In this document: positions 1,512-19,273 of the stretch, in pieces | Position numbering within the stretch: the stretch's first letter is position 1 | Layout: every line of letters begins with the position of its first letter | DNA from: a virus | Reading direction: 5' to 3' (one strand) | DNA: 19,273 nucleotides | UHGV virus genome: UHGV-0105037 | The notes under the pieces: generated by a model | The model's database searches: none | Seen by the model: the letters and a program-made list of their open reading frames with translations, nothing else | What the model was told of the DNA's origin: nothing | Position numbers and translations under genes: made by a program

Positions 1512-1549
1512 GTAGATTGTTTAGTGCTTGGATGTGGGCACTAAAAGGC

Positions 1550-1570: not shown

Positions 1571-1592
1571 TTCATGAGGGCTAGAGGACGAC

Positions 1593-1868: not shown

Positions 1869-1878
1869 GGAGAACCGT

Positions 1879-2546: not shown

Positions 2547-2609
2547 GTAATTAACCAGAGTTTTTAACGCACTTAATCGTGCGGGGCTTCTTTTTGCCTG
2601 GAGAAAGTT

Positions 2610-2834: not shown

Positions 2835-3136
2835 TGTCCTGTTCTCGTTCAGTTGTATTACTGAATAACGCCTTAAAAATCGCCGTTATGAAAAATGGCG
2901 ATTTGTCTCTTATTCAACTTGGTCTTGATAAAGAAAAACGCGAAATAACTGAGTCTGTTATCGCGATTTATCAGAACGAATTAAACCTCCTGTCTGATGT
3001 GGTCAATTTGCTTGTTAAACGCGCTGTGTTTCACAAGCAAATCTCCTCCGTGGATGAACTGACGAAATTAACGACAGAAATCGCCAGCTATTGCGCTGAT
3101 GAATTTAAAAACCTTAACGACAAAAGGAACTGGTAA
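2831..3136 (+). CDS. Hypothetical early protein (P2 orf81-like, 101 aa)
   Basis: Start overlaps the upstream stop (ATGA-type coupling); co-oriented small ORF in the early operon. Confidence 0.6.
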
Positions 3137-3360
3137 TGCCGGACAACGTAGATTTTATTCAGGCACAACAGGCTGAATTACTGGAGCGCCAGATTAACGC
3201 GGCAAGGGTAAAACATTGCGGTGCTTCTGCGATGGTTTGCGAAGAGTGTGACGCGCCAATACCTGCTGCCCGTCGTGCGGCTTATCCGTCAGCCACGCGT
3301 TGTGTTTCCTGTCAGTCAGTTTTTGAAGCAAAAAACAAACATTACCGGAGAACGGCATGA
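3136..3360 (+). CDS. DksA/TraR-family C4 zinc-finger protein (P2 orf82-like, 74 aa)
   Basis: Translation contains CEEC-N17-CVSC (CxxC...CxxC), typical of TraR/DksA-type zinc fingers. Start overlaps the upstream stop. Confidence 0.72.
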   Translation: MPDNVDFIQAQQAELLERQINAARVKHCGASAMVCEECDAPIPAARRAAYPSATRCVSCQSVFEAKNKHYRRTA

Positions 3361-3632
3361 GTATTCGTATTGAAATTGGCGAACGTTATGTCGTTACCAG
3401 TGACAGCTTTCAGTTTATTCTCCACGAGAAAAAGAGAGCTGAAAGCGGTAAAAACGCCGGTCAGGAATGGCTGGCGGTGGTTGGTTATTACCCGAAATTA
3501 AGCCAGCTCGTTTCCGGCCTGATGCATCACGATATTCTGACCGGAAGCGCAAAGTCTTTTGCTGATTTAAACGCGCAGGTTGAGCAACTCAGCAAGCGTT
3601 GTTCAGAGGCTTTTGGCTCATATGGCCGTTAA
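3357..3632 (+). CDS. Hypothetical early protein (P2 orf83-like, 91 aa)
   Basis: Co-oriented ORF with start overlapping the upstream stop; ends where A begins. Confidence 0.6.
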   Translation: MSIRIEIGERYVVTSDSFQFILHEKKRAESGKNAGQEWLAVVGYYPKLSQLVSGLMHHDILTGSAKSFADLNAQVEQLSKRCSEAFGSYGR

Positions 3633-5892
3633 AGCCTCCGGGCGTTTTGTCCCTCCGTCAGCATTTGCCGCAGGCACCGGTAAGACGTTTACCGGTGCTT
3701 ATGCATGGAACGCGCCACGCGAGGCCGTCGGGCGCGAAAGACCCCTTACACGTGACGAGATGCGTCAGGTGCAAGGTGTTTTATCCACGATTAACCGCCT
3801 GCCTTACTTTTTGCGCTCGCTGTTTACTTCACGCTATGACTACATCCGGCGCAATAAAAGCCCGGTGCACGGGTTTTATTTCCTCACATCCACTTTTCAG
3901 CGTCGTTTATGGCCGCGCATTGAGCGTGTGAATCAGCGCCATGAAATGAACACCGACGCGTCGTTGCTGTTTCTGGCAGAGCGTGATCACTATGCGCGCC
4001 TGCCGGGAATGAATGACAAGGAGCTGAAAAAGTTTGCCGCCCGTATCTCATCGCAGCTTTTCATGATGTATGAGGAACTCAGCGATGCCTGGGTGGATGC
4101 GCATGGCGAGAAAGAATCACTGTTTACGGATGAGGCTCAGGATCACCTGTATGGTCATGTTGCTGGCGCTGCACGAGCTTTCAATATTTCCCCTCTCTAC
4201 TGGAAAAAATACCGTAAAAGACAGATGACCACGAGGCAGGCATATTCTGCCATTGCCCGTCTGTTTAACGATGAGTGGTGGACTCATCAGCTTAAAGGCC
4301 AGCGTATGCGCTGGCATGAAGCGTTACTGATAGCTGTCGGGGAGGTCAATAAAGACCGTTCTCCTTATGCCAGTAAACACGCCATTCGTGATGTGCGTGC
4401 GCGCCGCCAGGCAAATCTGGAATTTCTTAAATCGTGTGACCTTGAAAACAGGGAAACCGGCGAGCGCATCGACCTTATCAGTAAGGTGATGGGCAGTATT
4501 TCTAATCCTGAAATTCGCCGGATGGAGCTGATGAACACCATTGCCGGTATTGAGCGTTACGCCGCTGCAGAGGGGGATGTGGGGATGTTTATCACGCTGA
4601 CCGCGCCGTCAAAGTATCACCCGACACGTCAGGTAGGAAAAGGCGAAAGTAAAACCGTGCAGCTTAATCACGGCTGGAACGATGAGGCATTTAATCCAAA
4701 GGATGCGCAGCGTTATCTCTGCCGTATCTGGAGCCTGATGCGCACGGCATTCAAGGATAATGATTTACAGGTCTACGGTTTGCGTGTCGTCGAGCCACAC
4801 CACGACGGAACGCCGCACTGGCATATGATGCTTTTTTGTAATTCACGCCAGCGTAACCAGATTATCGAAATCATGCGTCGCTATGCGCTCAAAGAGGATG
4901 GCGACGAAAGAGGAGCCGCGCGAAACCGTTTTCAGGCAAAACACCTTAACCGGGGCGGTGCTGCGGGATATATCGCGAAATACATTTCAAAAAACATCGA
5001 CGGCTATGCACTGGATGGTCAGCTCGATAACGACACCGGCAGGCCGCTGAAAGACACTGCAGCGGCTGTTACCGCATGGGCGTCAACGTGGCGCATCCCG
5101 CAATTTAAAACGGTTGGCCTGCCGACAATGGGGGCTTACCGTGAACTACGCAAATTGCCGCGCGGCGTCAGCATTGCTGATGAGTTTGACGAGCGCGTCG
5201 AGGCTGCACGCGCCGCCGCAGACAGTGGTGATTTTGCGTTGTATATCAGCGCGCAGGGTGGGGCAAATGTCCCGCGCGATTGTCAGACTGTCAGAGTCGC
5301 CCGTAGCCCGTCGGATGAAGTTAACGAGTACGAGGAAGAAGTCGAGAGAGTGGTCGGCATTTACGCGCCGCATCTCGGCGCGCGTCATATTCATATCACC
5401 AGAACGACGGACTGGCGCATTGTGCCGAAAGTGCCGGTCGTTGAGCCTTTGACTTTAAAAAGCGGCATCGCCGCGCCTCGGAGTCCTGTCAATAACTGTG
5501 GAAAGCTCACCGGTAGTGATGTTTCGTTACCGGCTCCCACACCTTCTGAGCACGCCGCCGCAGTGCTTAATCTGGTTGATGACGGTGTTATCGAATGGAA
5601 TGACCAGGAGGTCGTGAGGGCGCTCAGGGGCGCATTAAAACACGACCTGAGAACACCAAACCGTCAGCAAAGAAGCGGAAGCCCGTTAAAACCGCATGAA
5701 ATAGCGCCATCGGCCAGACTGACCCGGTCGGAACGAATGCAAATTACCCGTATCCGCGTTGACCTTGCTCAGAACGGTATCAGGCCGCAGCGATGGGAGC
5801 TTGAGGCGCTGGCGCGTGGGGCAACTGTAAATTACGACGGGAGAAGCTTCAGTTATCCTGTTATATGTGATTGGAGAGCGTATGAATTATGA
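3622..5892 (+). CDS. A: Replication initiation protein A (rolling-circle HUH endonuclease)
   Basis: Long ORF (770 aa from a TTG at 3580; first ATG at 3622 gives MAVKASGRF..., the N-terminus I recall for P2 A). Contains an HUH-like motif (GTPHWHMMLF) and paired tyrosines (AGYIAKYISK), as in P2 A / phiX174 gpA-type nickases. Confidence 0.9.
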   Translation: MAVKASGRFVPPSAFAAGTGKTFTGAYAWNAPREAVGRERPLTRDEMRQVQGVLSTINRLPYFLRSLFTSRYDYIRRNKSPVHGFYFLTSTFQRRLWPRIERVNQRHEMNTDASLLFLAERDHYARLPGMNDKELKKFAARISSQLFMMYEELSDAWVDAHGEKESLFTDEAQDHLYGHVAGAARAFNISPLYWKKYRKRQMTTRQAYSAIARLFNDEWWTHQLKGQRMRWHEALLIAVGEVNKDRSPYASKHAIRDVRARRQANLEFLKSCDLENRETGERIDLISKVMGSISNPEIRRMELMNTIAGIERYAAAEGDVGMFITLTAPSKYHPTRQVGKGESKTVQLNHGWNDEAFNPKDAQRYLCRIWSLMRTAFKDNDLQVYGLRVVEPHHDGTPHWHMMLFCNSRQRNQIIEIMRRYALKEDGDERGAARNRFQAKHLNRGGAAGYIAKYISKNIDGYALDGQLDNDTGRPLKDTAAAVTAWASTWRIPQFKTVGLPTMGAYRELRKLPRGVSIADEFDERVEAARAAADSGDFALYISAQGGANVPRDCQTVRVARSPSDEVNEYEEEVERVVGIYAPHLGARHIHITRTTDWRIVPKVPVVEPLTLKSGIAAPRSPVNNCGKLTGSDVSLPAPTPSEHAAAVLNLVDDGVIEWNDQEVVRALRGALKHDLRTPNRQQRSGSPLKPHEIAPSARLTRSERMQITRIRVDLAQNGIRPQRWELEALARGATVNYDGRSFSYPVICDWRAYEL

Positions 5893-5985
5893 GATTGTGA
5901 TAAAAAGTAAATAATTAATATAATGCAATTGCTTAACTGTTTTAAAAGGGACAACGTAGTTGTGAACTATATTGTCCCGGGAGTA

Positions 5986-7041
5986 TTAATTTTTAAATAT
6001 GGATTGTATGTATTCTATAGTGCTATCTTTAGCTCTGATGTCTTTTAAAGTGTTATTTATGAAATCTATTATTCTGTCATTACTTAATAGTGGCGATAAC
6101 GCATAACATGTTGTTGTGAATGTCATGACGTCACTAAAGCTTAGTGAAACACCTTTTGTCGCAGCGTTCTCAATCGCAAGAGACTCATCAATATCTAAGT
6201 TTGTTGCTCTTGGCCCTTTAAGGAAGATAACTTTTGAAATCCCGGATGCAGATGCTTTTGAAACGGCGTGATTAACATCTTGATAATTAAATGGTTTGTC
6301 TTTCACTTCTATAGAAAGGAAAACTATATCATCATGATATACATCTATGTCCAGTATCTCTTTTGAGGAGCTACCGGCCTGATTGACGGGATGTGCTTTT
6401 ATTATCCATCCTCTTTGTTCACCTAATAAATGTAACGAAATTGCGGCAGCAATCGCGCATGTTTCTCCATCACAAGGATGAGATATAATATTATAAATAA
6501 TCTTATGGAAATCAAAATTAATTGAGTTCGGCGTTATAACTCTATTGGTTCGCTGTAGGGTAAAATATAATGCAATAACAAGCATTTCATAAGCTAAGGT
6601 TTGGGTTGTTGCTGCATGTAATATATCAATTGAAAGTTGTTGTAAAACCTTATCATTTCCTCTGCGCACAGGGTTATCAGAGGAGTGGAGCATGTAACGA
6701 GCTGGTTTATTTAGAAATGGCTCATTTGATGCGCCTAACTTACCCTCTAAAAATGGGCCTTCTACTTTGCCTACTATTACCGAATGACATAAACTCCTTG
6801 CATCATAGGCTCCGTCTACGGGGGCATTAGCTTGTAAAGCCAGAGGGTTAACTCTAGGGTCTGTTGCTTTTGCAAGTAAACCAGTAATAAGTATATATCT
6901 GTATGTAAGGTGGGTGCCTAAAATTACATTTTGAATGGAGACCCATTGATTATTTGTTTTGTAATCAGTTAATTTTTTTGCATCGTTGATTGCATTTATA
7001 ATTACATTATAGGCTTGCTCATGATTTACTAATACTTTCAT
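5986..7041 (-). CDS. Uncharacterized 351-aa cargo protein; candidate restriction endonuclease or defence effector with a possible PD-(D/E)xK-like motif
   Basis: ORF in a visibly AT-rich segment unlike the flanking phage DNA. Strong RBS (AAGGA, 5 nt before the ATG at 7041). Its start overlaps the stop of the upstream HTH gene by 23 bp. Motif HDDIVFLSIEVKDK could be a D...(D/E)xK nuclease core. I do not recognise the family. Confidence 0.75.
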   Translation of the reverse strand: MKVLVNHEQAYNVIINAINDAKKLTDYKTNNQWVSIQNVILGTHLTYRYILITGLLAKATDPRVNPLALQANAPVDGAYDARSLCHSVIVGKVEGPFLEGKLGASNEPFLNKPARYMLHSSDNPVRRGNDKVLQQLSIDILHAATTQTLAYEMLVIALYFTLQRTNRVITPNSINFDFHKIIYNIISHPCDGETCAIAAAISLHLLGEQRGWIIKAHPVNQAGSSSKEILDIDVYHDDIVFLSIEVKDKPFNYQDVNHAVSKASASGISKVIFLKGPRATNLDIDESLAIENAATKGVSLSFSDVMTFTTTCYALSPLLSNDRIIDFINNTLKDIRAKDSTIEYIQSIFKN

Positions 7042-7333
7042 AGGTGTCCTTTAGTAAGATATCCATTGGTAGACCTAATCGGCTTGCAACCACCTCTAAT
7101 AATTCAAATAGTTCTAAAGCATCTAATCGCCTTTCAAAGCTTTCGATTTTAGATATATCTGATTGTGATAATCCTAGAAAAATGGCCAATTCTGACTGCG
7201 AAAGAGAAGCTTCTTTGCGTAGTTTGGTGAGAAGCTGGACTAGGCACCTGTATCTATGATCATGTATAGTTGGTTGTCGTTTTGCCATGTGGTTTAGAAG
7301 GTGATTGATTGTGTGTCGATCCTTACCTATCAT
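7019..7333 (-). CDS. XRE/Cro-family HTH transcriptional regulator (candidate controller protein); alternative start at 7288
   Basis: Translation contains a typical XRE HTH (LSQSELAIFLGLSQSDISKIE). Translationally coupled to the downstream 351-aa gene and divergent from the methyltransferase. ATG at 7333 gives 104 aa; the internal ATG at 7288 gives 89 aa. Confidence 0.72.
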   Translation of the reverse strand: MIGKDRHTINHLLNHMAKRQPTIHDHRYRCLVQLLTKLRKEASLSQSELAIFLGLSQSDISKIESFERRLDALELFELLEVVASRLGLPMDILLKDTYESISKS

Positions 7334-7371
7334 TGGTTTTATTCCAAAATCGAATAATTGGTGCTAAAGAA

Positions 7372-8463
7372 GTGAACAAAATTTCAGCGGTGAGCTTATT
7401 TACTGGGGCAGGAGGGATGGATGTCGGTTTCTCTAATGCCGGGTTCCGAACAGTTTGGGCCAATGATATAGATAAGGATGCATGTGATACATTTAAGCTT
7501 AATCATGAATCACCTGTTTTTTGTGGTGATATTGATGAGATGCTAAGTGAATTGTCTGGGCTGAAAAATATAGGTTGTGTTTTTGGTGGGCCTCCATGCC
7601 AAGGATTTTCTGTGGCAGGGAAAATGGACGCTCATGATCCACGTAGTAAGCTGGTTATGTCATTCATGCGGGCGGTGGATATAATTCAACCAGAATGCTT
7701 TGTTATGGAGAATGTTAAGGCTTTAGCACAGTTGTCCAAATTTGAACCAGTTAGGTGTGAACTGTTTAAGATGGCTGAAAAGTCAGGCTATCGTTCAGCC
7801 TTGCTGGTGCTGAATTCTAAAGATTTTGGCGTTCCTCAGAATAGGGAACGTATGTTTTTTATAGGGTTTCGTTCCGAAAATGATGTGAAACGAGTTGAGG
7901 CGGCGATAAAAAAATACCAATATCTTTCGCCAACAGTTGGTGAGATTATTCGGCCTTTAGGGCGAGCGGGTAATCCAAATAATTCAAGAGTCTGTAATGC
8001 AAGGATTACAAATGCTGCTAAGCCAGTATTACGGAAGTCACCTTACGCGGGAATGATGTTTAACGGGCAGGGAAGACCAATTAACCCGAATGGGTATGCT
8101 TCAACTATAGCTGCTTCTATGGGGGGGAATAGGACACCAATTATTGATGAAGAACACCTTTATGATGGCTCAACAAGTTATGTTGAGACTTATCATAATC
8201 ATCTAATGAATGGTGGTGAGCCAAAAGATATGCACGATGTACCTAGTCGTTTACGTCGACTAACGATAGATGAGGCTCTTTTGATTCAAACATTCCCGAG
8301 TAATTATGTCTTTGTGGGGAAAAATTCGTCAATTTGGCGTCAGATAGGGAATGCTGTGCCTTGTAAATTGGCGCAGGCTGTTGCTGCAGGGGTTTTGGAT
8401 GTCCTTACTGGTAAAACTATTAATGTTCAAAAGAGTCAAACAGAGTTGAGTTTGAATTCGTAA
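7372..8463 (+). CDS. DNA (cytosine-5)-methyltransferase
   Basis: Canonical C5-MTase motifs: FTGAGGMDVGF (motif I, AdoMet binding), GGPPCQGFS (motif IV, catalytic Cys), ENV (motif VI), QNRERMFFIG (motif VIII), GNAVP (motif X). The frame has no ATG before motif I; the ORF track starts at a TTG at 7309, and I prefer the GTG at 7372, which leaves a typical short leader before FxGxGG. Confidence 0.9.
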   Translation: MNKISAVSLFTGAGGMDVGFSNAGFRTVWANDIDKDACDTFKLNHESPVFCGDIDEMLSELSGLKNIGCVFGGPPCQGFSVAGKMDAHDPRSKLVMSFMRAVDIIQPECFVMENVKALAQLSKFEPVRCELFKMAEKSGYRSALLVLNSKDFGVPQNRERMFFIGFRSENDVKRVEAAIKKYQYLSPTVGEIIRPLGRAGNPNNSRVCNARITNAAKPVLRKSPYAGMMFNGQGRPINPNGYASTIAASMGGNRTPIIDEEHLYDGSTSYVETYHNHLMNGGEPKDMHDVPSRLRRLTIDEALLIQTFPSNYVFVGKNSSIWRQIGNAVPCKLAQAVAAGVLDVLTGKTINVQKSQTELSLNS

Positions 8464-8619
8464 AACGGATCACATTTTCAAACCGATGGATGCAGAATTT
8501 AACATTGCTGCATGAGTTTGCATCTTGAAATCATAAGCTGTACTGCTTAGCTTGACCAGAATTGATGTGGGTAAGAAGTGGTTATGCACCCGCATTAAAA
8601 CCGCCCCATTAAGCGGGCG

Positions 8620-8638
8620 GGCGAGGCGGGGAAAGCAC
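8620..8638. other. cos: cos cohesive-end site (P2-type 19-nt GGCGAGGCGGGGAAAGCAC)
   Basis: Exact 19-mer ggcgaggcggggaaagcac read at 8620-8638. This is the P2 cohesive-end sequence as I recall it. It sits where expected, between the end of the early/cargo region and Q, and is preceded by the palindrome ccgccc-atta-agcgggcgg. Confidence 0.6.
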
Positions 8639-8780
8639 TGCGCGCTGGCGGTGGTGCTGATTTTATTTTTTCAGCGTCTGAGCGCGTCGTGATGGCGTTT
8701 AGATTGTTCGCCGGGGCGTTGGTGTGTCTGCGGGCTGTTTTGTGCGGTGGTGAGCGTGTGAGGGCGTGATGGCGGGGTGT

Positions 8781-8802
8781 AAAAAAGCCGCCCACAGGCG
8801 GC
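8781..8802 (-). terminator. Rho-independent terminator downstream of Q (minus strand)
   Basis: GC hairpin gccgcc-caca-ggcggc (8787-8802), followed on the minus strand by a T-run (plus-strand aaaaaa at 8781-8786), immediately 3' of the Q stop (8808-8810). Confidence 0.6.
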
Positions 8803-8807
8803 GATGT

Positions 8808-9842
8808 TCAGCCGTTGTCAGTGTCCAGTGAGTAGTTTTTAAAGCGGATGACCTCCTGACCGAGCCAGCCGTTTATCTCGCGGATCCTGTCCTGTAACGG
8901 GATAAGCTCATTGCGGACAAAGACCTTTGCCACTTTCTCTATATCACCCAGCGACCCGACGTTCTCCGGCTTGCCACCCATCAACTGAAAGGGGATGCGG
9001 TGCGCGTCCAGCAGGTCAGCGGCGCTGGCTTTTTTGATATTAAAAAAATCGTCCTTCGTCGCCACTTCACTGAGGGGGATAATTTTAATGCCGTCGGCTT
9101 TCCCCTGTGGGGCATAGAGAAACAGATTTTTAAAGTTATTGCGGCCTTTCGACTTAACCATGTTTTCGCGTAGCATTTCGATATCGTTGCGATCCTGCAC
9201 GGCATCAGTGACGTACATGATGTATCCGGCATGTGCGCCATTTTCGTAATACTTGCGGCGGAACAGCGTGGCCGACTCATTCAGCCAGGCAGAATTAAGG
9301 GCGCTGAGATATTCCGGCAGACCGTACAGCTCCTGATTAATATCCGGCTCCAGCAGGTGAAACACGGAGCCGGGCGCGAAGGCTGTCGGCTCGTTGAAGG
9401 ACGGCACCCACCAGTAAACATCCTCTTCCACACCACGGCGGGTATATTTTGCCGGTGAGGTTTCCAGTCTGATGACCTTACCGGTGGTACTGTAACGCTT
9501 TTCCAGAAACGCATTACCGAACACCAGAAAATCCAGCACAAAGCGGCTGAAATCCTGCTGGGAAAGCCACGGGTGCGGGATAAACGTTGAGGCCAGAATA
9601 TTACGTTTGACGTAAATCGGTGAGCTGTGATGCACGGCAGCACGCAGGCTTTTTGCCAGACCGGTAAAGCTGACCGGTGGCTCATACCATCTGCCGTTAC
9701 TGATGCACTCGACGTAATCCAGAATATCACGGCGGTCGAGTACCGGCACCGGCTCACCAAAGGTGAATGCCTCCATTTTCGGGGCGCTGGCAGTCATTGT
9801 TTTCACCGCTGGCTGCGGTGTTTTCCCTTTTTTCTTACTCAT
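8808..9842 (-). CDS. Q: Portal (capsid vertex) protein Q (344 aa)
   Basis: 344-aa ORF next to cos on the minus strand; its start codon overlaps the P stop. Size, position and sequence match P2 Q as recalled. Confidence 0.88.
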   Translation of the reverse strand: MSKKKGKTPQPAVKTMTASAPKMEAFTFGEPVPVLDRRDILDYVECISNGRWYEPPVSFTGLAKSLRAAVHHSSPIYVKRNILASTFIPHPWLSQQDFSRFVLDFLVFGNAFLEKRYSTTGKVIRLETSPAKYTRRGVEEDVYWWVPSFNEPTAFAPGSVFHLLEPDINQELYGLPEYLSALNSAWLNESATLFRRKYYENGAHAGYIMYVTDAVQDRNDIEMLRENMVKSKGRNNFKNLFLYAPQGKADGIKIIPLSEVATKDDFFNIKKASAADLLDAHRIPFQLMGGKPENVGSLGDIEKVAKVFVRNELIPLQDRIREINGWLGQEVIRFKNYSLDTDNG

Positions 9843-11614
9843 CAGTAAAACTCCAGAATGGTGGATGTCAGCGGAGTGCTGATACCGGCGGTGAGTGGCT
9901 CATTTAACAGGGCGTGCATGGTCGCCCAGGCGAGGTCGGCGTGGCTGGCTTCCTCGCTGCGGCTGGCCTCATAGGTGGCGCTGCGTCCGCTGCTGGTCAT
10001 GGTCTTGCGGATAGCCATGAACGAGCTGGTGATGTCGGTGGCGCTGACGTCATATTCCAGACAGCTACGGCGGATAACGTCTTTTGCCTTGAGCACCATT
10101 GCAGTTTTCATTTCCGGCGTGTAGCGGATATCGCGCGCGGCGGGATAGAACGAGCGCACGAGCTGGAACACGCCGACACCGAGGCCGGTGGCATCAATAC
10201 CGATGTATTCGACGTTATATTTTTCGGTGAGTTTGCGGATGGATTCAGCCTGGGTGGCAAAGTCCATGCCTTTCCACTGGTGACGCTCAAGTATTCTGAA
10301 TTTGCCACCGGCCACCACCGGCGGTGCCAGCACCACGCATCCGGCGCTGTCGCCACGGTGTGACGGGTCGTAACCAATCCATACCGGACGTGAGCCGAAC
10401 GGATTGGCGGCAAACGGAGCATAGTCTTCCCATTCTTCCAGCGTGTCGACCATGCAGCGTTGCAGCTCCTCGAACGGGAACACCGACGCCTTGTCGTCAA
10501 CAAATTCACACATGAACAGGTTTTTAAAATCGTCGGCGCTGTTTTCACGTTTGAGCTGCTCAATGTCGAACAGCGTGCAGCCGCCTTTCAGGGCGTCCTC
10601 AATGGTGACAATCTGCCGCCACTGGCCGTCCGCACAGAGAAGCCCACCGGCAAGGGCGTTATGACTGACGTCGATTTCCACGCGCTCGGCGGCGCTGGCG
10701 CGTCCCCGGTTAAACAGTTCACCCGACCAGAACGGGTAGGCGTCGTGCGCCAGTGTGGACGGGGTGGAGAAATAGGTCGAGCGCAGGTGACTCTGTGAGG
10801 CCATACCTGATGCCACCTTACGCAGTACCTGAAAATTCGGGATCCAGAAAATCTCGTCGACGTACAGGTCGCCGTTATGGCTCTGCGCGGTGTTGGAGTT
10901 GGTGCCGAGAAAAATCAGTTTTGCGCCGTTATTGCCCAGGACAATCGGGTCACCGGTCAGGTCAACGTCAACCAGCCGGGCAAAGGCGATGATGTATTCG
11001 CGGAACACATACGCCTGCGTTTTACTGGCCGACAGAAAAATCTGGTTATGACCGGTTTTCAGGGCGCGCAGCAGCGCCTCGCGGGAAAAATAAAACGTCG
11101 CGCCAATCTGGCGGGATTTCAGGATATCGCGGATGCGGTGCTCAAGCCCGGCGCGATACCAGTGCAACTGATATTCGAAAGACTGCTCAAAGAAAATCTG
11201 CTCCAGCTTTTCGATGGCCTCGTCACTGAAAAAATTCTTTTTCGGTTTGCGCCGCCCGCCTTTGTTGCGGTTAGCGACGTTCGGATTAAGGTCTGCCTCG
11301 TTGCCGGTCTGACTGTAACGGTTTACCCGTGCCAGTCGTTCAATCTGGCGTCCGAGCAGGTCAATTTCCTTGAAGTCACCGCCAGTTTTCTGCGGTTTGA
11401 TGATGAGCTGGGTCAGCCGCGCTTCCAGACTCATTTCGACACGGCTGATGGGGGCAACGCTGTCCCAGCCGTCGCGCTGTTTCCAGCTCTGCACCGTCGG
11501 GCGTTTCATCTGCAACATGGCGGCAATCTGCGGCACGGAAAACCCCTGCCAGTACAGCAGCGCCGCCTGACGACGCGGGTCGTGTAAAAGAGTGGTGTCT
11601 GTGGTGATGGTCAT
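9842..11614 (-). CDS. P: Terminase large subunit (ATPase/nuclease) P (590 aa from ATG at 11614)
   Basis: The ORF extends to 11644, but the internal ATG at 11614 (MTITTDTTLL...) has GAGGT 4-5 nt upstream and gives the 590-aa P2 P length. Large ORF adjacent to and co-transcribed with the portal gene. Confidence 0.9.
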   Translation of the reverse strand: MTITTDTTLLHDPRRQAALLYWQGFSVPQIAAMLQMKRPTVQSWKQRDGWDSVAPISRVEMSLEARLTQLIIKPQKTGGDFKEIDLLGRQIERLARVNRYSQTGNEADLNPNVANRNKGGRRKPKKNFFSDEAIEKLEQIFFEQSFEYQLHWYRAGLEHRIRDILKSRQIGATFYFSREALLRALKTGHNQIFLSASKTQAYVFREYIIAFARLVDVDLTGDPIVLGNNGAKLIFLGTNSNTAQSHNGDLYVDEIFWIPNFQVLRKVASGMASQSHLRSTYFSTPSTLAHDAYPFWSGELFNRGRASAAERVEIDVSHNALAGGLLCADGQWRQIVTIEDALKGGCTLFDIEQLKRENSADDFKNLFMCEFVDDKASVFPFEELQRCMVDTLEEWEDYAPFAANPFGSRPVWIGYDPSHRGDSAGCVVLAPPVVAGGKFRILERHQWKGMDFATQAESIRKLTEKYNVEYIGIDATGLGVGVFQLVRSFYPAARDIRYTPEMKTAMVLKAKDVIRRSCLEYDVSATDITSSFMAIRKTMTSSGRSATYEASRSEEASHADLAWATMHALLNEPLTAGISTPLTSTILEFY

Positions 11615-11787
11615 GAATACCTCGCCGTGATGAATACACGGCAAGGCTACTGAGTCGCGCCCCGCGATTCGCTAAGGTGCTGTTGTGTCAGTGATAAGCC
11701 ATCCGGGACTGATGGCGGAGGATGCGCATCGTCGGGAAACTGATGCCGACATGTGACTCCTCTAATCACTATTCAGGACTCCTGACA
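11615..11787. promoter_or_regulatory. Divergent late-promoter region between P and O (expected Ogr-dependent promoters)
   Basis: 173-bp intergenic region between divergent late operons. Contains the inverted repeat ccatc-N7-gatgg (11699-11715) and TGT-rich sequence (tgttgtgtca, 11681-11690). I could not place an exact TGT-N12-ACA activator site. Confidence 0.35.
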
Positions 11788-12642
11788 ATGGCAAAAAAAG
11801 TCTCAAAATTCTTTCGTATCGGCGTTGAGGGTGACACCTGTGACGGGCGTGTCATCAGTGCGCAGGATATTCAGGAAATGGCCGAAACCTTTGACCCGCG
11901 AGTCTATGGTTGCCGCATTAACCTGGAACATCTGCGCGGCATCCTGCCTGACGGTATTTTTAAGCGTTATGGCGATGTGGCCGAACTGAAGGCCGAAAAG
12001 ATTGACGATGATTCGGCGCTGAAAGGCAAATGGGCGCTGTTTGCGAAAATCACCCCGACCGATGACCTTATCGCGATGAACAAGGCCGCGCAGAAGGTCT
12101 ACACCTCAATGGAAATTCAGCCGAACTTTGCCAACACCGGCAAATGTTATCTGGTGGGTCTGGCCGTCACCGATGACCCGGCAAGCCTCGGCACGGAATA
12201 CCTGGAATTCTGCCGCACGGCAAAACACAACCCCCTGAACCGCTTCAAATTAAGCCCTGAAAACCTGATTTCAGTGGCAACGCCTGTTGAGCTGGAATTT
12301 GAAGACCTGCCTGAAACCGTGTTCACCGCCCTGACCGAAAAGGTGAAATCCATTTTTGGCCGCAAACAGGCCAGCGATGACGCCCGTCTGAATGACGTGC
12401 ATGAAGCGGTGACCGCTGTTGCTGAACATGTGCAGGAAAAACTGAGCGCCACTGAGCAGCGCCTCGCTGAGATGGAAACCGCCTTTTCCGCACTTAAGCA
12501 GGAGGTGACTGACAGGGCGGATGAAACCAGTCAGGCATTCACCCGCCTGAAAAACAGTCTCGACCACACCGAAAGTCTGACCCAGCAGCGCCGCAGTAAA
12601 GCCACCGGCGGTGGCGGTGACGCCCTGATGACGAACTGCTAA
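11788..12642 (+). CDS. O: Capsid scaffolding protein O (284 aa)
   Basis: ORF from the ATG at 11788 (MAKKVSKFFRIGVEGD...). The C-terminal half is helix-rich (LSATEQRLAEMETAFSALKQEV), typical of scaffolds. Divergent from P as in P2. Confidence 0.85.
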   Translation: MAKKVSKFFRIGVEGDTCDGRVISAQDIQEMAETFDPRVYGCRINLEHLRGILPDGIFKRYGDVAELKAEKIDDDSALKGKWALFAKITPTDDLIAMNKAAQKVYTSMEIQPNFANTGKCYLVGLAVTDDPASLGTEYLEFCRTAKHNPLNRFKLSPENLISVATPVELEFEDLPETVFTALTEKVKSIFGRKQASDDARLNDVHEAVTAVAEHVQEKLSATEQRLAEMETAFSALKQEVTDRADETSQAFTRLKNSLDHTESLTQQRRSKATGGGGDALMTNC

Positions 12643-12700
12643 CCGGCGTCAGTCAGTCCGGGAAAACCTTCACGATTAACCCTTAATTTCAGGAAAAACT

Positions 12701-12871
12701 ATGCGCCAGGAAACCCGCTTTAAATTTAATGCCTACCTGTCCCGTGTTGCCGAACTGAACGGCATCGACGCCGGTGATGTGTCGAAAAAATTCACCGTTG
12801 AACCGTCGGTCACCCAGACCCTGATACGGAATTGCAGCGTAACGCGCTGGAGTGCGCAGGATGTGAGCTGA
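12701..12871 (+). pseudogene. N: Truncated major capsid gene N: first 41 or so codons, then out-of-frame fusion
   Basis: ATG at 12701 with RBS (aggaaaaact). Translation MRQETRFKFNAYLSRVAELNGIDAGDVSKKFTVEPSVTQTL matches the P2 N N-terminus, then switches to unrelated residues (IRNCSVTRWSAQDVS) and stops at 12869-12871. A full capsid protein would be about 357 aa. Confidence 0.7.
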
Positions 12872-13377
12872 TTTTTGAGGATAAAATCAGCGGCACGAAG
12901 TCCGACCGACCGGGACTGAAAAAACTGCTCAGGACATTATCGGAGGGGGATACACTGGTGGTCTGGAAGCTGGACCGGCTGGGGCGTAGTATGCGGCATC
13001 TGGTCATTCTGGTTGAGGAACTGCGCGAACGCGGCGTTAATTTTCGCAGCCTGACGGATGCTATTGATACCAGCACACCGATGGGGCGTTTTTTCTTTCA
13101 TGTGATGGGTGCCCTGGCTGAAATGGAGCGAGAACTCATTGTCGAGCGGACACGCGCCGGACTGGAAGCGGCCAGAGCCAAAGGTCGTATTGGTGGCAGA
13201 CGACCGAAACTCACCGCGAGTGAGTGGGAGCAGGCCGGGCGTTTGCTGGCTGCAGGGGAGTCACGTCAACGCGTGGCACTGATTTTTGATATTGGCCTGT
13301 CCACGCTCTATAAAAAATTTCCCTCATCAGCGACAAAGAATAAATTGTGTCATCCCTTAGCCAACCGGGACAAATAG
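12832..13377 (+). pseudogene. 5'-truncated serine DNA invertase (Hin/Gin/Pin/Cin family) lacking the catalytic N-terminus
   Basis: Translation (LQRNALECAGCELIFEDKISGTKSDRPGLKKLL ... MGRFFFHVMGALAEMERELIVERT ... GGRRPKL ... STLYKKF) is a typical resolvase/invertase from about residue 20 onward. There is an in-frame stop at 12799-12801 and no ATG near the homology boundary, so the first ~20 residues, including the catalytic serine, are missing. Confidence 0.78.
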
Positions 13378-13436
13378 CCTGACATCTCCGGCACAACTGA
13401 AAATACCACTCACCCATTAACCACGGAGTTAAACGG

Positions 13437-14003
13437 ATGAGTGACTATCATCACGGCGTGCAGGTGCTGGAGATTAACGACGGCACCCGCGTCATTTCCA
13501 CCGTATCCACTGCCATTGTCGGCATGGTCTGCACGGCCAGCGATGCGGATGCGGAAACCTTCCCCCTCAATAAACCGGTGCTGATTACCAATGTGCAGAG
13601 TGCAATTGCAAAGGCCGGTAAAAAAGGCACGCTGGCGGCATCGTTGCAGGCCATCGCCGACCAGTCAAAACCGGTCACCGTTGTCGTACGTGTGGAAGAC
13701 GGCACCGGCGACGACGAGGAAACGAAACTCGCGCAGACCGTTTCCAATATCATCGGCACCACCGACGAAAACGGTCAGTACACCGGACTGAAAGCCCTGC
13801 TGGCGGCGGAGTCGGTAACCGGTGTTAAACCGCGTATTCTCGGCGTGCCGGGACTGGATACCAAAGAGGTGGCTGTTGCACTGGCATCAGTCTGTCAGAA
13901 GCTGCGTGCTTTCGGATATATCAGCGCATGGGGCTGTAAGACCATTTCCGAGGTGAAAGCCTACCGCCAGAATTTCAGCCAGCGTGAGCTGATGGTCATC
14001 TGA
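13437..14003 (+). pseudogene. FI: Truncated tail sheath gene FI (188 codons of about 396)
   Basis: Good RBS (acggag) and start ([25 protein letters not shown]...) matching the P2 sheath N-terminus. The ORF stops abruptly at ...QRELMVI, and the downstream sequence continues as FII in another frame. Confidence 0.72.
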
Positions 14004-14392
14004 ACGGCAGCGCACCGGTAGACCTCGGCCTTGATGACGATGCGCTGTCAATGGAGTGGTCGCTCGGTGGTTTCCCGGATTCGGTTATCTGGGAGCTTTA
14101 CGCCGCAACCGGTGTGGATGCTGTGCCGATTCGTTTTGCAGGCTCTTACCAGCGTGACGATACCGGCGAAACGGTGGCCGTTGAAGTGGTCATGCGTGGA
14201 CGTCAGAAAGAAATCGACACCGGCGAGGGTAAACAGGGAGAAGACACCGAGTCGAAAATCTCCGTGGTCTGCACCTATTTCCGGCTGACGATAGACGGTA
14301 AGGAGCTGGTCGAAATCGACACCATCAACATGATTGAGAAGGTGAACGGCGTCGACCGGCTGGAGCAACACCGCCGCAATATCGGCCTGTGA
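14004..14392 (+). pseudogene. FII: 5'-truncated tail tube gene FII (C-terminal ~130 codons, no start or RBS)
   Basis: In the mod-2 frame the sequence right after the FI stop reads NGSAPVDLGLDDDALSMEWSLGGFPDSVIWELY ... EQHRRNIGL, which I recognise as the middle and C-terminus of the P2 tail tube protein. The only ATG (14051) has no RBS. Confidence 0.68.
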
Positions 14393-14399
14393 TTTTCAT

Positions 14400-14420
14400 C
14401 CGGTCAGCCTGGCTGACCGG
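14400..14420. repeat. Perfect 10-bp inverted repeat (ccggtcagcc-t-ggctgaccgg) between the FII remnant and E
   Basis: Read directly at 14400-14420. No U-run follows, so it is not a classical terminator; it may be an RNA stem-loop or a protein-binding palindrome. Confidence 0.5.
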
Positions 14421-14448
14421 TTAACCCCGATTCAGAAGTGAGAAAACC

Positions 14449-14724
14449 ATGAACAAAGAAAACGTCATTACCCTGGACAATCCGGTCAAACGTGGTGAGC
14501 AGGTTATCGAACAGGTCACGCTGATGAAACCCAATGCCGGGACGCTGCGCGGTGTCAGTCTGGCTGCAGTCGCGAACTCCGAAGTCGATGCACTGATTAA
14601 AGTGCTGCCGCGCATGACGGCACCGATGCTGACCGAGCAGGAAGTCGCCGCGCTGGAACTGCCTGACCTTGTGGCGCTGGCCGGTAAGGTGGTCGGTTTT
14701 TTGTCGCCGAACTCGGTGCAGTGA
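14449..14724 (+). CDS. E: Tail assembly chaperone E (91 aa)
   Basis: ORF with RBS (gtgagaaaacc ATG). Matches P2 gpE in size and position immediately upstream of the tape measure gene. Confidence 0.85.
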   Translation: MNKENVITLDNPVKRGEQVIEQVTLMKPNAGTLRGVSLAAVANSEVDALIKVLPRMTAPMLTEQEVAALELPDLVALAGKVVGFLSPNSVQ

Positions 14725-14876
14725 CGTTTCCGAAAAATCTCTCGGTCGATGACCTGATGGCGGATGTGGCAGTGATATTTCACTGGCCGCCATCAGAACT
14801 GTATCCCATGAGCCTGACCGAACTCATCACATGGCGCGAAAAGGCGCTCCGGCGAAGCGGAAACACGAATGAGTAA
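14449..14876 (+). CDS. E': E+E' frameshift fusion product (programmed -1 frameshift at the TTTTTTG slippery heptamer, 14697-14703)
   Basis: Slippery heptamer T TTT TTG sits in the E frame near its 3' end. The -1 frame is open from 14703 to a TAA at 14874-14876, overlapping the T start. This is the conserved chaperone frameshift, analogous to lambda G/GT. Confidence 0.6.
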
Positions 14877-17316
14877 CAATGTAAAATTACAGGTATTGCT
14901 AAGGGCTGTTGACCAGGCATCCCGTCCGTTTAAATCCATCCGCACAGCGAGCAAATCGCTGTCGGGGGATATCCGGGAAACACAAAAATCACTGCGCGAG
15001 CTGAACGGTCAGGCATCCCGTATTGAGGGATTCCGCAAGACCAGTGCACAGCTCGCCGTGACTGGTCATGCACTTGAAAAGGCACGGCAGGAGGCCGAAG
15101 CCCTTGCCACACAGTTTAAAAACACCGAACGTCCGACCCGTGGTCAGGCGAAAGTGCTGGAATCCGCAAAGCGTGCGGCGGAGGACTTACAGGCGAAATA
15201 TAACCGCCTGACAGATTCCGTTAAACGCCAGCAGCGGGAACTGGCCGCTGTGGGAATTAATACCCGCAATCTTGCACATGATGAGCAGGGACTGAAAAAC
15301 CGTATCAGTGAAACCACCGCACAGCTTAACCGTCAGCGCGACGCGCTGGCGCGTGTCAGTGCGCAACAGGCAAAACTTAACGCAGTCAAACAGCGTTATC
15401 AGGCCGGAAAGGAACTGGCCGGAAATATGGCCTCAGTAGGCGCTGCCGGTGTGGGGATTGCGGCGGCGGGAACGATGACCGGAGTTAAGTTGCTGATGCC
15501 CGGTTATGAGTTTGCGCAGAAAAACTCAGAATTGCAGGCCGTGCTCGGAGTGGCAAAAGACTCCGCCGAAATGACCGCACTACGCAAACAGGCGCGCCAG
15601 CTCGGCGACAATACCGCCGCCTCGGCGGATGATGCGGCCGGTGCACAGATAATCATCGCGAAAGCGGGTGGGGATGTTGATGCCATTCAGGCGGCAACGC
15701 CGGTCACGCTGAATATGGCGCTGGCGAACCGCCGCACGATGGAAGAAAACGCCGCCCTGCTGATGGGGATGAAATCCGCCTTTCAGCTTTCAAACGATAA
15801 GGTCGCTCATATCGGGGATGTTCTCTCCATGACGATGAACAAAACCGCCGCCGATTTTGACGGCATGAGCGATGCGCTGACCTATGCCGCACCTGTGGCA
15901 AAAAATGCCGGTGTCAGCATTGAAGAAACTGCCGCAATGGTCGGGGCGCTGCATGATGCAAAAATCACAGGCTCAATGGCGGGGACGGGAAGCCGTGCCG
16001 TGTTAAGCCGCCTGCAGGCACCGACGGGAAAAGCATGGGATGCACTCAAAGAGCTTGGAGTGAAAACCTCAGACAGCAAGGGAAACACCCGGCCAATATT
16101 TACCATTCTGAAAGAAATGCAGGCCAGTTTTGAGAAAAACCGGCTCGGTACTGCCCAGCAGGCTGAATACATGAAAACTATTTTCGGGGAGGAGGCCAGC
16201 TCAGCCGCCGCCGTGCTGATGACTGCCGCCTCAACCGGAAAGCTGGACAAACTGACCGCTGCGTTTAAAGCCTCAGACGGGAAGACCGCCGAGCTGGTAA
16301 ATATCATGCAGGACAACCTAGGCGGTGACTTTAAAGAGTTTCAGTCCGCTTATGAGGCAGTGGGGACTGACCTGTTTGACCAGCAGGAAGGCGCGCTGCG
16401 TAAGCTCACGCAGACGGCCACAAAGTATGTGTTAAAACTCGACGGCTGGATCCAGAAAAACAAATCACTGGCGTCAACCATCGGCATCATTGCCGGTGGC
16501 GCGCTGGCGCTGACTGGCATCATCGGTGCCATTGGCCTCGTAGCCTGGCCGGTTATCACCGGCATCAATGCCATCATCGCGGCAGCAGGCGCAATGGGGG
16601 CAGTCTTCACGACGGTTGGCAGTGCTGTTATGACCGCCATCGGGGCTATTAGCTGGCCGGTTGTGGCCGTGGTGGCCGCAATTGTCGCCGGGGCGTTGCT
16701 TATCCGTAAATACTGGGAGCCTGTCAGCGCATTCTTTGGCGGTGTGGTTGAAGGGCTGAAAGTGGCATTTGCGCCGGTGGGGGAACTGTTCACGCCACTT
16801 AAGCCGGTGTTTGACTGGCTGGGCGAAAAGTTACAGGCCGCGTGGCAGTGGTTTAAAAACCTGATTGCCCCGGTCAAAGCCACCCAGGACACCCTGAACC
16901 GTTGCCGTGATACTGGCGTCATGTTCGGGCAGGCACTGGCTGACGCGCTGATGCTGCCGCTTAATGCGTTCAACAAACTGCGCAGCGGTATTGACTGGGT
17001 ACTGGAAAAACTCGGCGTCATCAACAAAGAGTCTGACGCACTTGACCAGACTGCCGCCAGAACTCATGCCGCCACGTATGGCACAGGTGGTTATATTCCG
17101 GCGACCAGCTCTTATGCAGGCTATCAGGCTTACCAGCCGGTCACGGCACCGGCTGGTCGCTCTTATGTGGACCAGAGTAAAAACGAATATCACATCAACC
17201 TGACGGGCGGTACTGCGCCGGGGACACAGCTTGACCGCCAGTTACAGGATGCGCTCGAAAAATACGAGCGGGATAAACGTGCGCGCGCCCGTGCCAGCAT
17301 GATGCATGACGGTTAA
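14869..17316 (+). CDS. T: Tail tape measure protein T (815 aa)
   Basis: Long ORF with a coiled-coil-rich N-terminal half and a Gly/Ala-rich hydrophobic segment (IIAGGALALTGIIGAIGLVAWPVITGINAIIAAAGAMG). Follows E/E' as in all long-tailed phages. Confidence 0.9.
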   Translation: MSNNVKLQVLLRAVDQASRPFKSIRTASKSLSGDIRETQKSLRELNGQASRIEGFRKTSAQLAVTGHALEKARQEAEALATQFKNTERPTRGQAKVLESAKRAAEDLQAKYNRLTDSVKRQQRELAAVGINTRNLAHDEQGLKNRISETTAQLNRQRDALARVSAQQAKLNAVKQRYQAGKELAGNMASVGAAGVGIAAAGTMTGVKLLMPGYEFAQKNSELQAVLGVAKDSAEMTALRKQARQLGDNTAASADDAAGAQIIIAKAGGDVDAIQAATPVTLNMALANRRTMEENAALLMGMKSAFQLSNDKVAHIGDVLSMTMNKTAADFDGMSDALTYAAPVAKNAGVSIEETAAMVGALHDAKITGSMAGTGSRAVLSRLQAPTGKAWDALKELGVKTSDSKGNTRPIFTILKEMQASFEKNRLGTAQQAEYMKTIFGEEASSAAAVLMTAASTGKLDKLTAAFKASDGKTAELVNIMQDNLGGDFKEFQSAYEAVGTDLFDQQEGALRKLTQTATKYVLKLDGWIQKNKSLASTIGIIAGGALALTGIIGAIGLVAWPVITGINAIIAAAGAMGAVFTTVGSAVMTAIGAISWPVVAVVAAIVAGALLIRKYWEPVSAFFGGVVEGLKVAFAPVGELFTPLKPVFDWLGEKLQAAWQWFKNLIAPVKATQDTLNRCRDTGVMFGQALADALMLPLNAFNKLRSGIDWVLEKLGVINKESDALDQTAARTHAATYGTGGYIPATSSYAGYQAYQPVTAPAGRSYVDQSKNEYHINLTGGTAPGTQLDRQLQDALEKYERDKRARARASMMHDG

Positions 17317-17330
17317 GGAGGTAACGAAAA

Positions 17331-17810
17331 ATGATGCTCGCGTTAGGTATGTTTGTTTTTATGCGCCAGACGCTGCCACACCAGACCATGCAGCGTGAAT
17401 CAGATTATCGCTGGCCGTCAAATTCCCGTATCGGCAAACGGGATGCCTTTCAGTTTCTCGGTACGGGTGAGGAAAACATCACGCTTGCCGGTGTGCTTTA
17501 TCCTGAACTGACCGGCGGAAAGCTGACGATGACCACGCTCAGACTGATGGCAGAGGAAGGCCGGGCGTGGCCGTTGCTGGATGGCACCGGCATGATTTAC
17601 GGCATGTATGTCATCAGCAAGGTGAGTGAAACAGGGAGTATTTTCTTTGCAGACGGCACACCCCGGAAAATTGATTTTACGCTGTCACTCACCCGCGTTG
17701 ATGAATCACTGGCCGCGCTTTATGGCGATATCGGTAAACAGGCGGAATCGCTCATCGGTAAGGCTGGCAGTATGGCGACCAGATTCACGGGTATGACGGG
17801 GGCGGGATAA
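17331..17810 (+). CDS. U: Tail protein U (159 aa)
   Basis: ORF with strong RBS (taaggaggtaacgaaaa ATG); P2 gene order T-U-D. Confidence 0.85.
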   Translation: MMLALGMFVFMRQTLPHQTMQRESDYRWPSNSRIGKRDAFQFLGTGEENITLAGVLYPELTGGKLTMTTLRLMAEEGRAWPLLDGTGMIYGMYVISKVSETGSIFFADGTPRKIDFTLSLTRVDESLAALYGDIGKQAESLIGKAGSMATRFTGMTGAG

Positions 17811-18973
17811 TGCTGGATACGCTGACATTTGATGCAGGCAGTACGCTGACGCCGGATTACATGCTGATGCTCGACAGCAGGGATATTACCGGCAATATCA
17901 GCGACCGTCTGATGAGCATGACTCTGACGGATAACCGGGGCTTTGAGGCTGACCAGCTTGATATTGAACTGAACGATGCCGACGGGCAGGTCGGACTGCC
18001 GGTTCGTGGCGCTGTCCTGACGGTGTATATCGGCTGGAAAGGTTTTGCCTTGGTATGCAAAGGGAAATTTACCGTTGATGAGGTTGAACACCGGGGCGCG
18101 CCGGATGTGGTCACCATCCGCGCCCGGAGTGCAGATTTCCGCGGGACGCTCAATTCCCGCCGTGAAGGTTCATGGCATGACACCACGCTCGGTGCGATTG
18201 TTGAGGCGATAGCCTCCCGTAACAGGCTGGAAGCCAGTGTCGCTCCGTCACTGGCCGGAATTAAAATCCCGCACATCGACCAGTCGCAGGAGTCTGATGC
18301 GAAATTCCTGACCCGTCTTGCAGAACGCAACGGCGGTGAGGTGTCGGTAAAAATGGGAAAACTGTTGTTTCTCAAAGCGGGGCAGGGGGTGACGGCCAGC
18401 GGTAAAAAAATCCCGCAGGTCACCATAACCCGCAGCGACGGCGACCGCCATCATTTTGCGATTGCTGACCGTGGAGCCTATACCGGTGTAACGGCAAAGT
18501 GGTTACACACCAAAGACCCGAAACCGCAAAAGCAGAAGGTAAAACTGAAACGCAAAAAGAAAGAGAAACACCTGCGCGCACTGGAGCACCCGAAAGCGAA
18601 ACCAGTCACGCAGAAGAAAGCGCCAAAAGTACCGGAAGCGCGCGAAGGTGAATACATGGCTGGTGAGGCTGACAATGTTTTTGCCCTGACCACGGTATAT
18701 GCCACGAAAGCACAGGCCATGCGTGCCGCTCAGGCGAAGTGGGATAAGCTGCAACGGGGTGTAGCGGAGTTCTCCATCATCCTGGCTACCGGTCGTGCAG
18801 ATATTTACACGGAAACGCCGGTCAAAGTGTCAGGCTTTAAGCGCGTCATAGACGAGCAGGACTGGACAATCACTAAGGTGACACATTTTCTGAATAATAG
18901 CGGCTTCACGACGTCCTTGGAGCTTGAGGTCAGGCTTTCTGATGTGGAGTACGAAACAGAAGATGATGAGTGA
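17810..18973 (+). CDS. D: Tail protein D (387 aa)
   Basis: Start ATG overlaps the U stop (TAATG); has a Lys-rich basic stretch (KPQKQKVKLKRKKKEKHLR). Size and position match P2 D. Confidence 0.85.
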   Translation: MLDTLTFDAGSTLTPDYMLMLDSRDITGNISDRLMSMTLTDNRGFEADQLDIELNDADGQVGLPVRGAVLTVYIGWKGFALVCKGKFTVDEVEHRGAPDVVTIRARSADFRGTLNSRREGSWHDTTLGAIVEAIASRNRLEASVAPSLAGIKIPHIDQSQESDAKFLTRLAERNGGEVSVKMGKLLFLKAGQGVTASGKKIPQVTITRSDGDRHHFAIADRGAYTGVTAKWLHTKDPKPQKQKVKLKRKKKEKHLRALEHPKAKPVTQKKAPKVPEAREGEYMAGEADNVFALTTVYATKAQAMRAAQAKWDKLQRGVAEFSIILATGRADIYTETPVKVSGFKRVIDEQDWTITKVTHFLNNSGFTTSLELEVRLSDVEYETEDDE

Positions 18974-19054
18974 TGTGTTTTATTTATGTATTTGTTTTAT
19001 ATGTATAAATTAACTAAAATGGCACCATCAACAAAATCGGAAGAGGTGCTCGCG

Positions 19055-19273
19055 ATGTTTCATTGTCCTTTATGCCAGCATGCCGCACATGCGCGTACAA
19101 GCCGCTATATCACTGACACGACAAAAGAGCGTTATCACCAGTGTCAGAACGTGAATTGCAGCGCCACGTTCATCACTTATGAGTCGGTACAGAGATACAT
19201 CGTGAAGCCGGGAGAAGTCCACGCCGTAAGGCCGCACCCGTTGCCGTCAGGGCAGCAAATTATGTGGATGTAA
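19055..19273 (+). CDS. ogr: Late gene transcriptional activator Ogr (zinc finger, 72 aa)
   Basis: The ORF begins at 18986, but the internal ATG at 19055 has RBS aagagg and gives MFHCPLCQHAAHARTSRYITDTTKERYHQCQNVNCSATF..., with CxxC ... CxxxxC zinc-finger cysteines and the 72-aa length of P2 Ogr. The stop is the last codon of the window. Confidence 0.85.
   Translation: MFHCPLCQHAAHARTSRYITDTTKERYHQCQNVNCSATFITYESVQRYIVKPGEVHAVRPHPLPSGQQIMWM

Follow-up and report, generated by a model that had tools for sequence, protein, structure and literature searches.

The 19,273-nt stretch of viral DNA analyzed here (the window) contains a tail sheath gene, FI, which breaks off and passes, out of frame, into the interior of the tail tube gene, FII. 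This locus raises the question of whether the break is a genuine deletion, what produced it and why it is located at this particular position in FI. We consider it likely that the break is a recent second deletion, 766 bp in size, which belongs to the neutral decay of a P2-like prophage and has a recurrent, non-random left breakpoint in FI.

The window element is a P2-like prophage of E. coli that has become defective and lies between yegR and yegQ. Both its gene order and its identity to known members place it among the P2-like (Peduovirus) prophages. The order is of the P2-like type (int-C-cox-B-A ... cos-Q-P / O-N ... FI-FII-E-T-U-D-ogr), and the window is collinear in three blocks (1–12825, 13357–14002 and 14001–19273; 95.5–99.1% identity) with L002, a P2-like prophage located between yegR and yegQ of E. 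coli 00-3076. Peduovirus phage records were likewise collinear with the window in the BLASTN comparison. The genes int, C, cox, B, A, Q, P, O, E, T, U, D and ogr are of full length. The lysogeny, replication and cargo modules had been predicted from the sequence to be intact, and all of them were found to be full length and collinear with those of L002. The cargo is located between gene A and cos (5986–8463) and contains three full-length genes, namely those of a SacI-family restriction endonuclease, an HTH controller and a C5 cytosine methyltransferase, which were assigned using the ORFs, the collinear annotation of L002 and Pfam. In other P2-like prophages, the region upstream of FI contains other defence genes (reverse transcriptase with AAA_15, SduA, DndB, Mrr, RelA_SpoT and others). 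The 19-nt sequence that we take to be the P2 cohesive end (cos) was found exactly, with 0 mismatches, at 8620–8638 on the plus strand, where 0.01 chance matches were expected. Downstream of FII, the orphaned tail genes E/E', T (tape measure), U and D were kept (14449–18973, plus strand; collinear with L002 25951–30475 and labeled by Pfam). The late-gene activator gene ogr (19055–19273, plus strand; L002 30557–30775) forms the right end of the prophage and adjoins yegQ. The genes from N codon 43 through G, the C-terminal half of FI and the N-terminus of FII are missing. The element is not a functional (inducible) P2-like prophage, as its head, tail, baseplate, fibre and lysis modules are incomplete.

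Most of the missing DNA belongs to another deletion, referred to as deletion 1. The major capsid remnant N' (12701–12871, plus strand) consists of 42 N codons followed by an out-of-frame read-through and matches positions 1–37 of the 327 positions of the Phage_cap_P2 profile. At the junction CTGAT/ACGG (12825–12826), N codon 42 is joined to codon 15 of a DNA invertase gene, and no microhomology was found there. The Hin/Cin-type invertase remnant (12826–13377, plus strand) matches the Resolvase profile from position 19 of 145 onwards and has lost its first 14 codons, within which the region of the catalytic serine falls. Deletion 1 removed the rest of N, together with M, L, X, the lysis genes, R, S, V, W, J, I, H and G. 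Its size compared with L002 is about 9.8 kb, which may differ from the true size, since L002 contains no invertase gene and the invertase portion of the window (12826–13356) has no counterpart there.

In deletion 2, 766 bp are absent between FI codon 189 (TGG) and FII codon 43 (ATG). The junction is ATCTG/AACGG (14001–14002, placed by alignment to intact relatives); both breaks fall after the second base of the codon, and the dinucleotide TG, which is common to the two codons, is the sole shared homology. No inserted DNA was found at the junction. The pairwise alignment of FI and FII that had been proposed in the original prediction was performed using the intact P2-like phage KC618326 (L001). 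BLASTN gave two collinear pieces (13300–14002 and 14001–14600 of the window) that stand 766 bp further apart in the phage than in the window. The alignment agrees with the junction originally read as atctg/aacggc, the deletion that had been estimated at roughly 0.75 kb has now been measured, and the suspected short microhomology corresponds to the TG. A megablast search with 13300–14600 against 50,697 phage records revealed 80 records that match in two collinear pieces, which span 2,067 bp in the phage versus 1,301 bp in the window. Intact FI-FII with both flanks 97–100% identical was found in 1,512 complete E. coli genomes and 80 phage records, and thus the junction is not a product of chance. 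In the deletion-1-only contig L048, which is the precursor described below, the left site reads ATCTGGCCGG and the right site reads GGGGATGAACGG. The known precursor, the homology limited to TG and the absence of filler characterize deletion 2 as a microhomology-mediated illegitimate deletion. An IS-mediated adjacent deletion was also considered, and no insertion sequence was found at an endpoint of the junction, which reads from FI straight into FII; likewise, none was found at the junctions of the related contigs L004, L011, L069–L072 and L075. Judging from the junction anatomy (2 bp of homology and no added bases), RecA-independent illegitimate recombination would be the underlying process, and its route would be either template switching in replication or end joining after a break. 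Homology of 2 bp is weak evidence for any particular pathway.

The deleted length equals 3 x 255 + 1 bp, and therefore the reading frames of the two gene remnants differ. The truncated sheath gene FI' (13437–14003, plus strand; defined by translation and intact relatives) comprises 188 codons and a TGA formed at the junction. As had been predicted, the translation ends with QRELMVI and a stop at 14001–14003. Its product is identical to residues 1–188 of the intact FI protein (396 aa). Analysis using Pfam revealed Gp18_domIII_N and Phage_sheath_1 (PF04984) at positions 1–90 of 168 in FI', while Phage_sheath_1C (PF17482) is absent; FI' is thus not a complete contractile tail sheath protein of the gpFI / gp18 family, both domains of which are complete in the precursor L048. 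The tail tube remnant FII' (14003–14392, plus strand; defined by ORFs, alignment and Pfam) encodes residues 44–172 and the stop codon. Its frame reads NGSAPVDLGLDDDALSMEWSLGG... from 14003 to the stop at 14390–14392, out of frame with FI', so the tube interior that had been noticed in another frame after the FI stop is indeed open as far as the end of FII. No start codon precedes the ATG at 14051 (Met60 of FII) in this frame, and no Shine-Dalgarno-like sequence was found upstream of it. The remnant matches Phage_tube (PF04985) at positions 42–165 of 165 and is not a full tail tube protein. From these sequence features, we take both the FI' fragment and the FII' remnant to be non-functional.

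The deletion-2 junction was found in 0 of 5,426 complete E. coli genomes and in 0 of 50,697 phage records. The junction 32-mer, the 22-mer and the pattern ...CATCTGH had no exact match in IMG/VR viral contigs, GTDB species genomes or JGI metagenomes. The original prediction was open to the possibility that full-length homologous phages naturally have a short FI in this arrangement, and no full-length phage or complete genome with such an arrangement was found. An exact look-up of the 188-residue product located the element with both deletions in ENA and Logan assemblies only. A look-up of the FII' product revealed five public contigs that carry both deletions with the same architecture. Among them, the 165-kb scaffold L003 and contig L007 agree with the window at 100% identity over 15,837 and 10,658 nt, respectively. 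It is hardly conceivable that the junction arose from misassembly or a chimeric read in a genome whose FI-FII is in fact intact. Many short-read contigs do break within about 20 nt of the site; however, these breaks are spread over several positions, and related junctions at the FI site are present in finished genomes. In addition, the same junction with its flanks occurs in the five contigs, which come from different assemblers and sources (ENA scaffolds of 50–200 kb and a Logan contig), and a de Bruijn graph cannot join sequences that have 2 bp in common. Deletion 2 is genuine, and its reality, on which the original prediction depended, is borne out by the reproduction of the junction in independent assemblies.

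A look-up of the 56-residue N' product found contigs L048 and L050, which carry deletion 1 only, with an intact FI (396 aa) and TGG at codon 189. L048, the longer of the two (33 kb), also contains an intact FII (172 aa) and shows zero mismatches with the window over 7,302 nt to the left and 4,105 nt to the right. Since L048 and L050 have deletion 1 and an intact FI, deletion 1 preceded deletion 2. Two independent deletions in structural genes had been proposed, and this is what the contigs demonstrate, two of them carrying deletion 1 alone and five carrying both. The comparison with L048 shows that deletion 2 is very recent and started from the wild-type codon. A TGA-nonsense ancestor like that in contig L005, which would have offered longer microhomologies, was also considered and was excluded by the TGG of the precursor L048. 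With a precursor and a product that have zero other differences, the succession of the decay steps and their anatomy can be read without ambiguity. Deletion 1 would already have left the prophage incapable of particle formation. Deletion 2 was most likely neutral decay; neutrality is an assumption that we make because the head, baseplate, fibre and lysis genes had already been lost.

The left breakpoint of deletion 2 is located in a region of about 10 nt, FI nt 565–575 (TGGCCGGATTT), which forms an end of at least 10 independent deletions in related prophages. The events are found at two positions 8–9 nt apart, FI-566 and FI-574, and run in both directions (three of the first class, six of the second and one leftward). 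The left end of the first class is ...GGTCATCTG^ (ATCTG^) and was found, through the look-up of the 188-residue product, in the window and in contigs L004 and L011. In L004, 3,706 bp were deleted into the 3' part of T, with CTG shared, and in L011, 4,233 bp were deleted into U, with G shared. The FI' sequence of the window differs from those of L004 and L011 by 13–16 synonymous differences; among all three there are 11–16, and the three are therefore separate lineages. The second class breaks after CCGGATT^ (FI nt 574/575), 9 nt downstream of the first, and comprises six events. The deletions starting from CCGGATT^ measure 829 bp in L070, 4,100 bp in L075 (complete genome Z217-2), 5,261 bp in L069 and 5,662 bp in L071, L072 and L077; the 5,662-bp junction is also matched by strain PSS-10 in a single piece with 100% identity, as read from the hit table only. 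At the protein level, two further products are consistent with the position of the second class, the in-frame FI-FII fusion P0046 and the in-frame internal deletion P0051/P0054. In the complete genome of FG92-1, a 12-kb leftward deletion joins gene P (CGGTTT^) to FI (^TCCTCGC) at the spot of the second class.

The FG92-1 prophage (L068; NZ_CP142677, 1731717–1737383) is a multi-deletion remnant located at the same locus as the window element. It contains P'-FI', FII, E, a truncated T joined to the 3' end of D, and ogrK, and a SIR2-family anti-phage gene pair is located upstream.

The number of events at this site was obtained in part from look-ups that match the 188-residue product only, which introduces an ascertainment bias; four other Trp codons served as a control. 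Products ending before W165, W195, W224 and W245 were found to be nonsense mutants or contig ends, and no deletions were found among them. The products of 187 and 189 residues are contig ends. Other FI alleles cut at residue 188 were not found in the collection. A homology search with FI', which is less biased than the exact look-up for left ends in codons 189–396, revealed eight rearrangements with left ends in these codons, five of them at codons 191–192. This search returned many odd-length FI fusion proteins. Two of the apparent FI fusions, P0047 and P0055, were rejected as contigs with untrimmed adapters: they end with LSLIHI or similar, and LSLIHI is the translated Nextera adapter CTGTCTCTTATACACATC. 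Some of the events counted as independent could be sequential deletions restarting at an earlier junction. The nucleotide-precise recurrence of the FI breakpoint is a real pattern and a modest new lead; a description of an FI hot spot was not found in the literature search.

Short-read contigs from many samples (L008–L012 and L018–L047) end at exact positions in FI nt 562–582, namely nt 562 (93 listed blocks), 564–565, 567–568 and 581–582. These contig ends near the breakpoint would be assembly-graph forks at synonymous SNPs of co-resident P2-like prophages. Contig ends at codon 188 were also considered as a sign of an insertion; this was excluded, as every tested truncation length from 150 to 194 aa is present in the collection. 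Two further positions drew attention. Breakpoints also recur at the 3' end of D (L002 30404–30410, GCGGCTTCACG), where deletions from FI nt 574 (L071 and L077), from FI nt 768 (L076, strain MS20649) and, in junction B of L075, from inside U, with the 6-bp homology TTCACG, have their right end. Divergence after FI residue 161 (about 13917–13919 in the window) was found in P0068–P0071, which are fusions to the D C-terminus, and in P0074, an in-frame internal deletion. Codon 161 may be another small hot spot, and the local sequence TTCGGATAT again contains CGGAT.

Truncation of FI could also have been selected, if the loss of sheath and tube or the 188-residue fragment itself benefits the host or the element, for example, by dodging a tail-triggered defence, by hindering superinfecting P2-like phages or by streamlining a helper-dependent mobilisable element. 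Such a reading would suit the intact cos and the full-length integration, replication, late-activator and restriction-modification genes, as well as the independent truncations of FI at the same codon, which include the point nonsense mutants at codon 189 in L005 (TGA) and L006 (TAG). However, nonsense mutants occur equally at W165, W224 and W245, and selection on the protein product does not require the breakpoints to coincide to the nucleotide. Moreover, the leftward deletion leaves nothing of FI but its C-terminal part and ends at the same site. The small terminase subunit gene M has been deleted, a length of 19.3 kb is far from the P2 headful size, and P2 lysogens are not expected to express late genes. 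Taken together, these observations make selection improbable. Among the nonsense mutants, L006 and L063 (Logan SRR29743956 and ERR9955044; contigs both of 20,454 nt) have two base differences in 6 kb, W189 being amber in one and W224 in the other, that is, two independent TGG-to-TAG changes in one clone.

Given the recurrence of the left breakpoint, the FI site itself seems prone to breakage or polymerase switching, and several local causes of this were considered. No significant hairpin or cruciform was found at the site (101-nt DNA fold, z = -0.8, with one weak inverted repeat only). A search for CRISPR self-targeting with an 80-nt query over the site in 5,426 genomes revealed no spacer-like isolated match, the weakest match being a prophage fragment. 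Perfect Chi sequences are absent from both prophage strands. A one-mismatch Chi-like octamer, GCTGATGG, ends 6–7 nt upstream of the first-class break, and the right-hand partner sites contain nothing comparable. Nicking by P2 gpA at a pseudo-origin was rejected, as the ori, presumably GCGCCTCGGAGTCCTGTC, is located at window position 5473 and is unlike the FI site. A pseudo-site of the Hin-type invertase was rejected as well, since no likeness was seen by eye and L011 contains no invertase. The FI site fits a Y^GGCCR restriction cut, but this motif occurs 19 times in 8 kb and is absent from the partner ends, so this candidate was also dismissed.

It is doubtful, though possible, that FI nt 565–575 is a sequence-specific fragile site with an enzymatic cut staggered by about 9 nt and that decay is channelled via FI-566, FI-574, D-30265 and D-30405. 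That the deletion in the window itself arose from a site-specific enzyme cutting FI, such as a P2-type integrase acting at secondary att-like sites, DNA gyrase (e.g., under quinolones) or a transposase-type staggered cut, appears still somewhat less probable. According to this explanation, the two classes of breakpoints, 8–9 nt apart and used in both directions, are the two ends of a staggered break, and a 5'-staggered break of about 9 nt would fit the geometry. The clustering of at least 10 events at two exact positions about 9 nt apart speaks for it. So does the choice of partners: the hexamer GGCTTC occurs three times in the 6 kb downstream of FI, and these copies are the partner sites of three second-class deletions, while the perfect 7-nt repeat of CCGGATT in FII, located 8 nt from one of the used GGCTTC sites, is not used. 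However, the observation on GGCTTC was made post hoc (about 1 in 56), and the fit to the gyrase consensus is a by-eye comparison only. Insertion sequences or foreign DNA were not found at any junction.

The comparison with the 27-nt att core bears on the integrase in particular. The best match in the prophage interior (18/27; L002 28829–28855, where gene U begins) coincides with the right-hand partner site of the Z217-2 deletion from FI-574 (L075, about position 1550) and is broken between core positions 18 and 19, as in PR-X, the remnant of a P2-like prophage in E. coli K-12. In contrast, the FI site matches the att core at 9/27 (mean 6.8, sd 2.3), about one standard deviation above the mean, and the right partner in the window matches at 14/27, with the break about 6 nt off the position between 18 and 19. 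The window junction thus does not have the features of an integrase-mediated secondary-site deletion. The fusion P0053, which joins FI residue 257 to D, uses the same att-like site in D (L002 30248–30274) as the PR-X junction. Integrase secondary-site recombination probably made some of the remnants at this locus and explains the window junction poorly.

The deletion in the window is ordinary prophage decay, and the element represents one stage of a known decay path. The deletion is a further recorded step in the erosion of a prophage whose useful restriction-modification cargo is still in place. The FI sheath gene is present in roughly a third of complete E. coli genomes. If erosion repeatedly starts at the same nucleotides, deletion spectra would depend on local fragility of the DNA or on a specific enzyme, which would bear on the origin of remnants like PR-X, on the speed at which lysogens become immune to induction and on models of prophage "domestication".

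A comparison with intact P2/Peduovirus genes (FI, 396 aa; FII, 172 aa) showed 97–100% nucleotide identity in the window flanks, and the retained residues are colinear. Compared with these genes, the window lacks the C-terminal half of the sheath, the first 43 residues of the tube and the tube start codon. R-type pyocins and tailocins are similar to the window element in their P2-like ancestry and in the loss of part of the virion genes. However, tailocins have lost the head but retain the genes of sheath, tube, baseplate, fibres and lysis, whereas in the window the sheath and tube are broken and the others are deleted, so the element is not an R-type tailocin. The production of tailocins, for which induction had originally been suggested, is not realistic to expect from it, because the baseplate, fibre and lysis genes, the C-terminal half of the sheath and the N-terminus of the tube are gone. 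P4-like satellites depend on a helper, which they exploit through genes for capsid size redirection and helper derepression. In the window element, cos, int, cox, A, B and ogr are present, and no satellite-specific gene was found among the annotated ORFs.

With regard to mechanism, short-homology illegitimate recombination in E. coli (e.g., PMC3375238, PMC11372144) is RecA-independent, with 0–9 bp of homology and with known hot spots in lambda Spi- assays. The prophage junctions are similar in their 0–6 bp of homology, the absence of filler and the kilobase scale of the deletions. Unlike in the lambda Spi- assays, one endpoint recurs with nucleotide precision and with many partners in natural isolates, and longer microhomologies are not preferred. 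P2 eduction is the Int-dependent loss of the prophage with adjacent DNA through secondary sites. A deletion of this kind has one end in the P2 prophage, and eduction could plausibly account for PR-X and the Z217-2 junction. In contrast, neither end of the deletion in the window lies outside the prophage, and the FI site resembles att only poorly.

The closest counterpart is PR-X of E. coli K-12 (ogrK and yegZ, a gpD fragment, between yegR and trhP/yegQ), which shares the site and the lineage of the window element and, like it, is an internal-deletion remnant of a P2-like prophage. At the left junction of PR-X, the attL core is joined between positions 18 and 19 to an att-like site in D (13/27) at the aligned position, which suggests that the integrase made this remnant, whereas the window junctions show no convincing att similarity. 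PR-X (L074; K-12 2167183–2167811) represents the end state of such decay, with 629 bp left, and the window, with 19.3 kb, represents an early stage.
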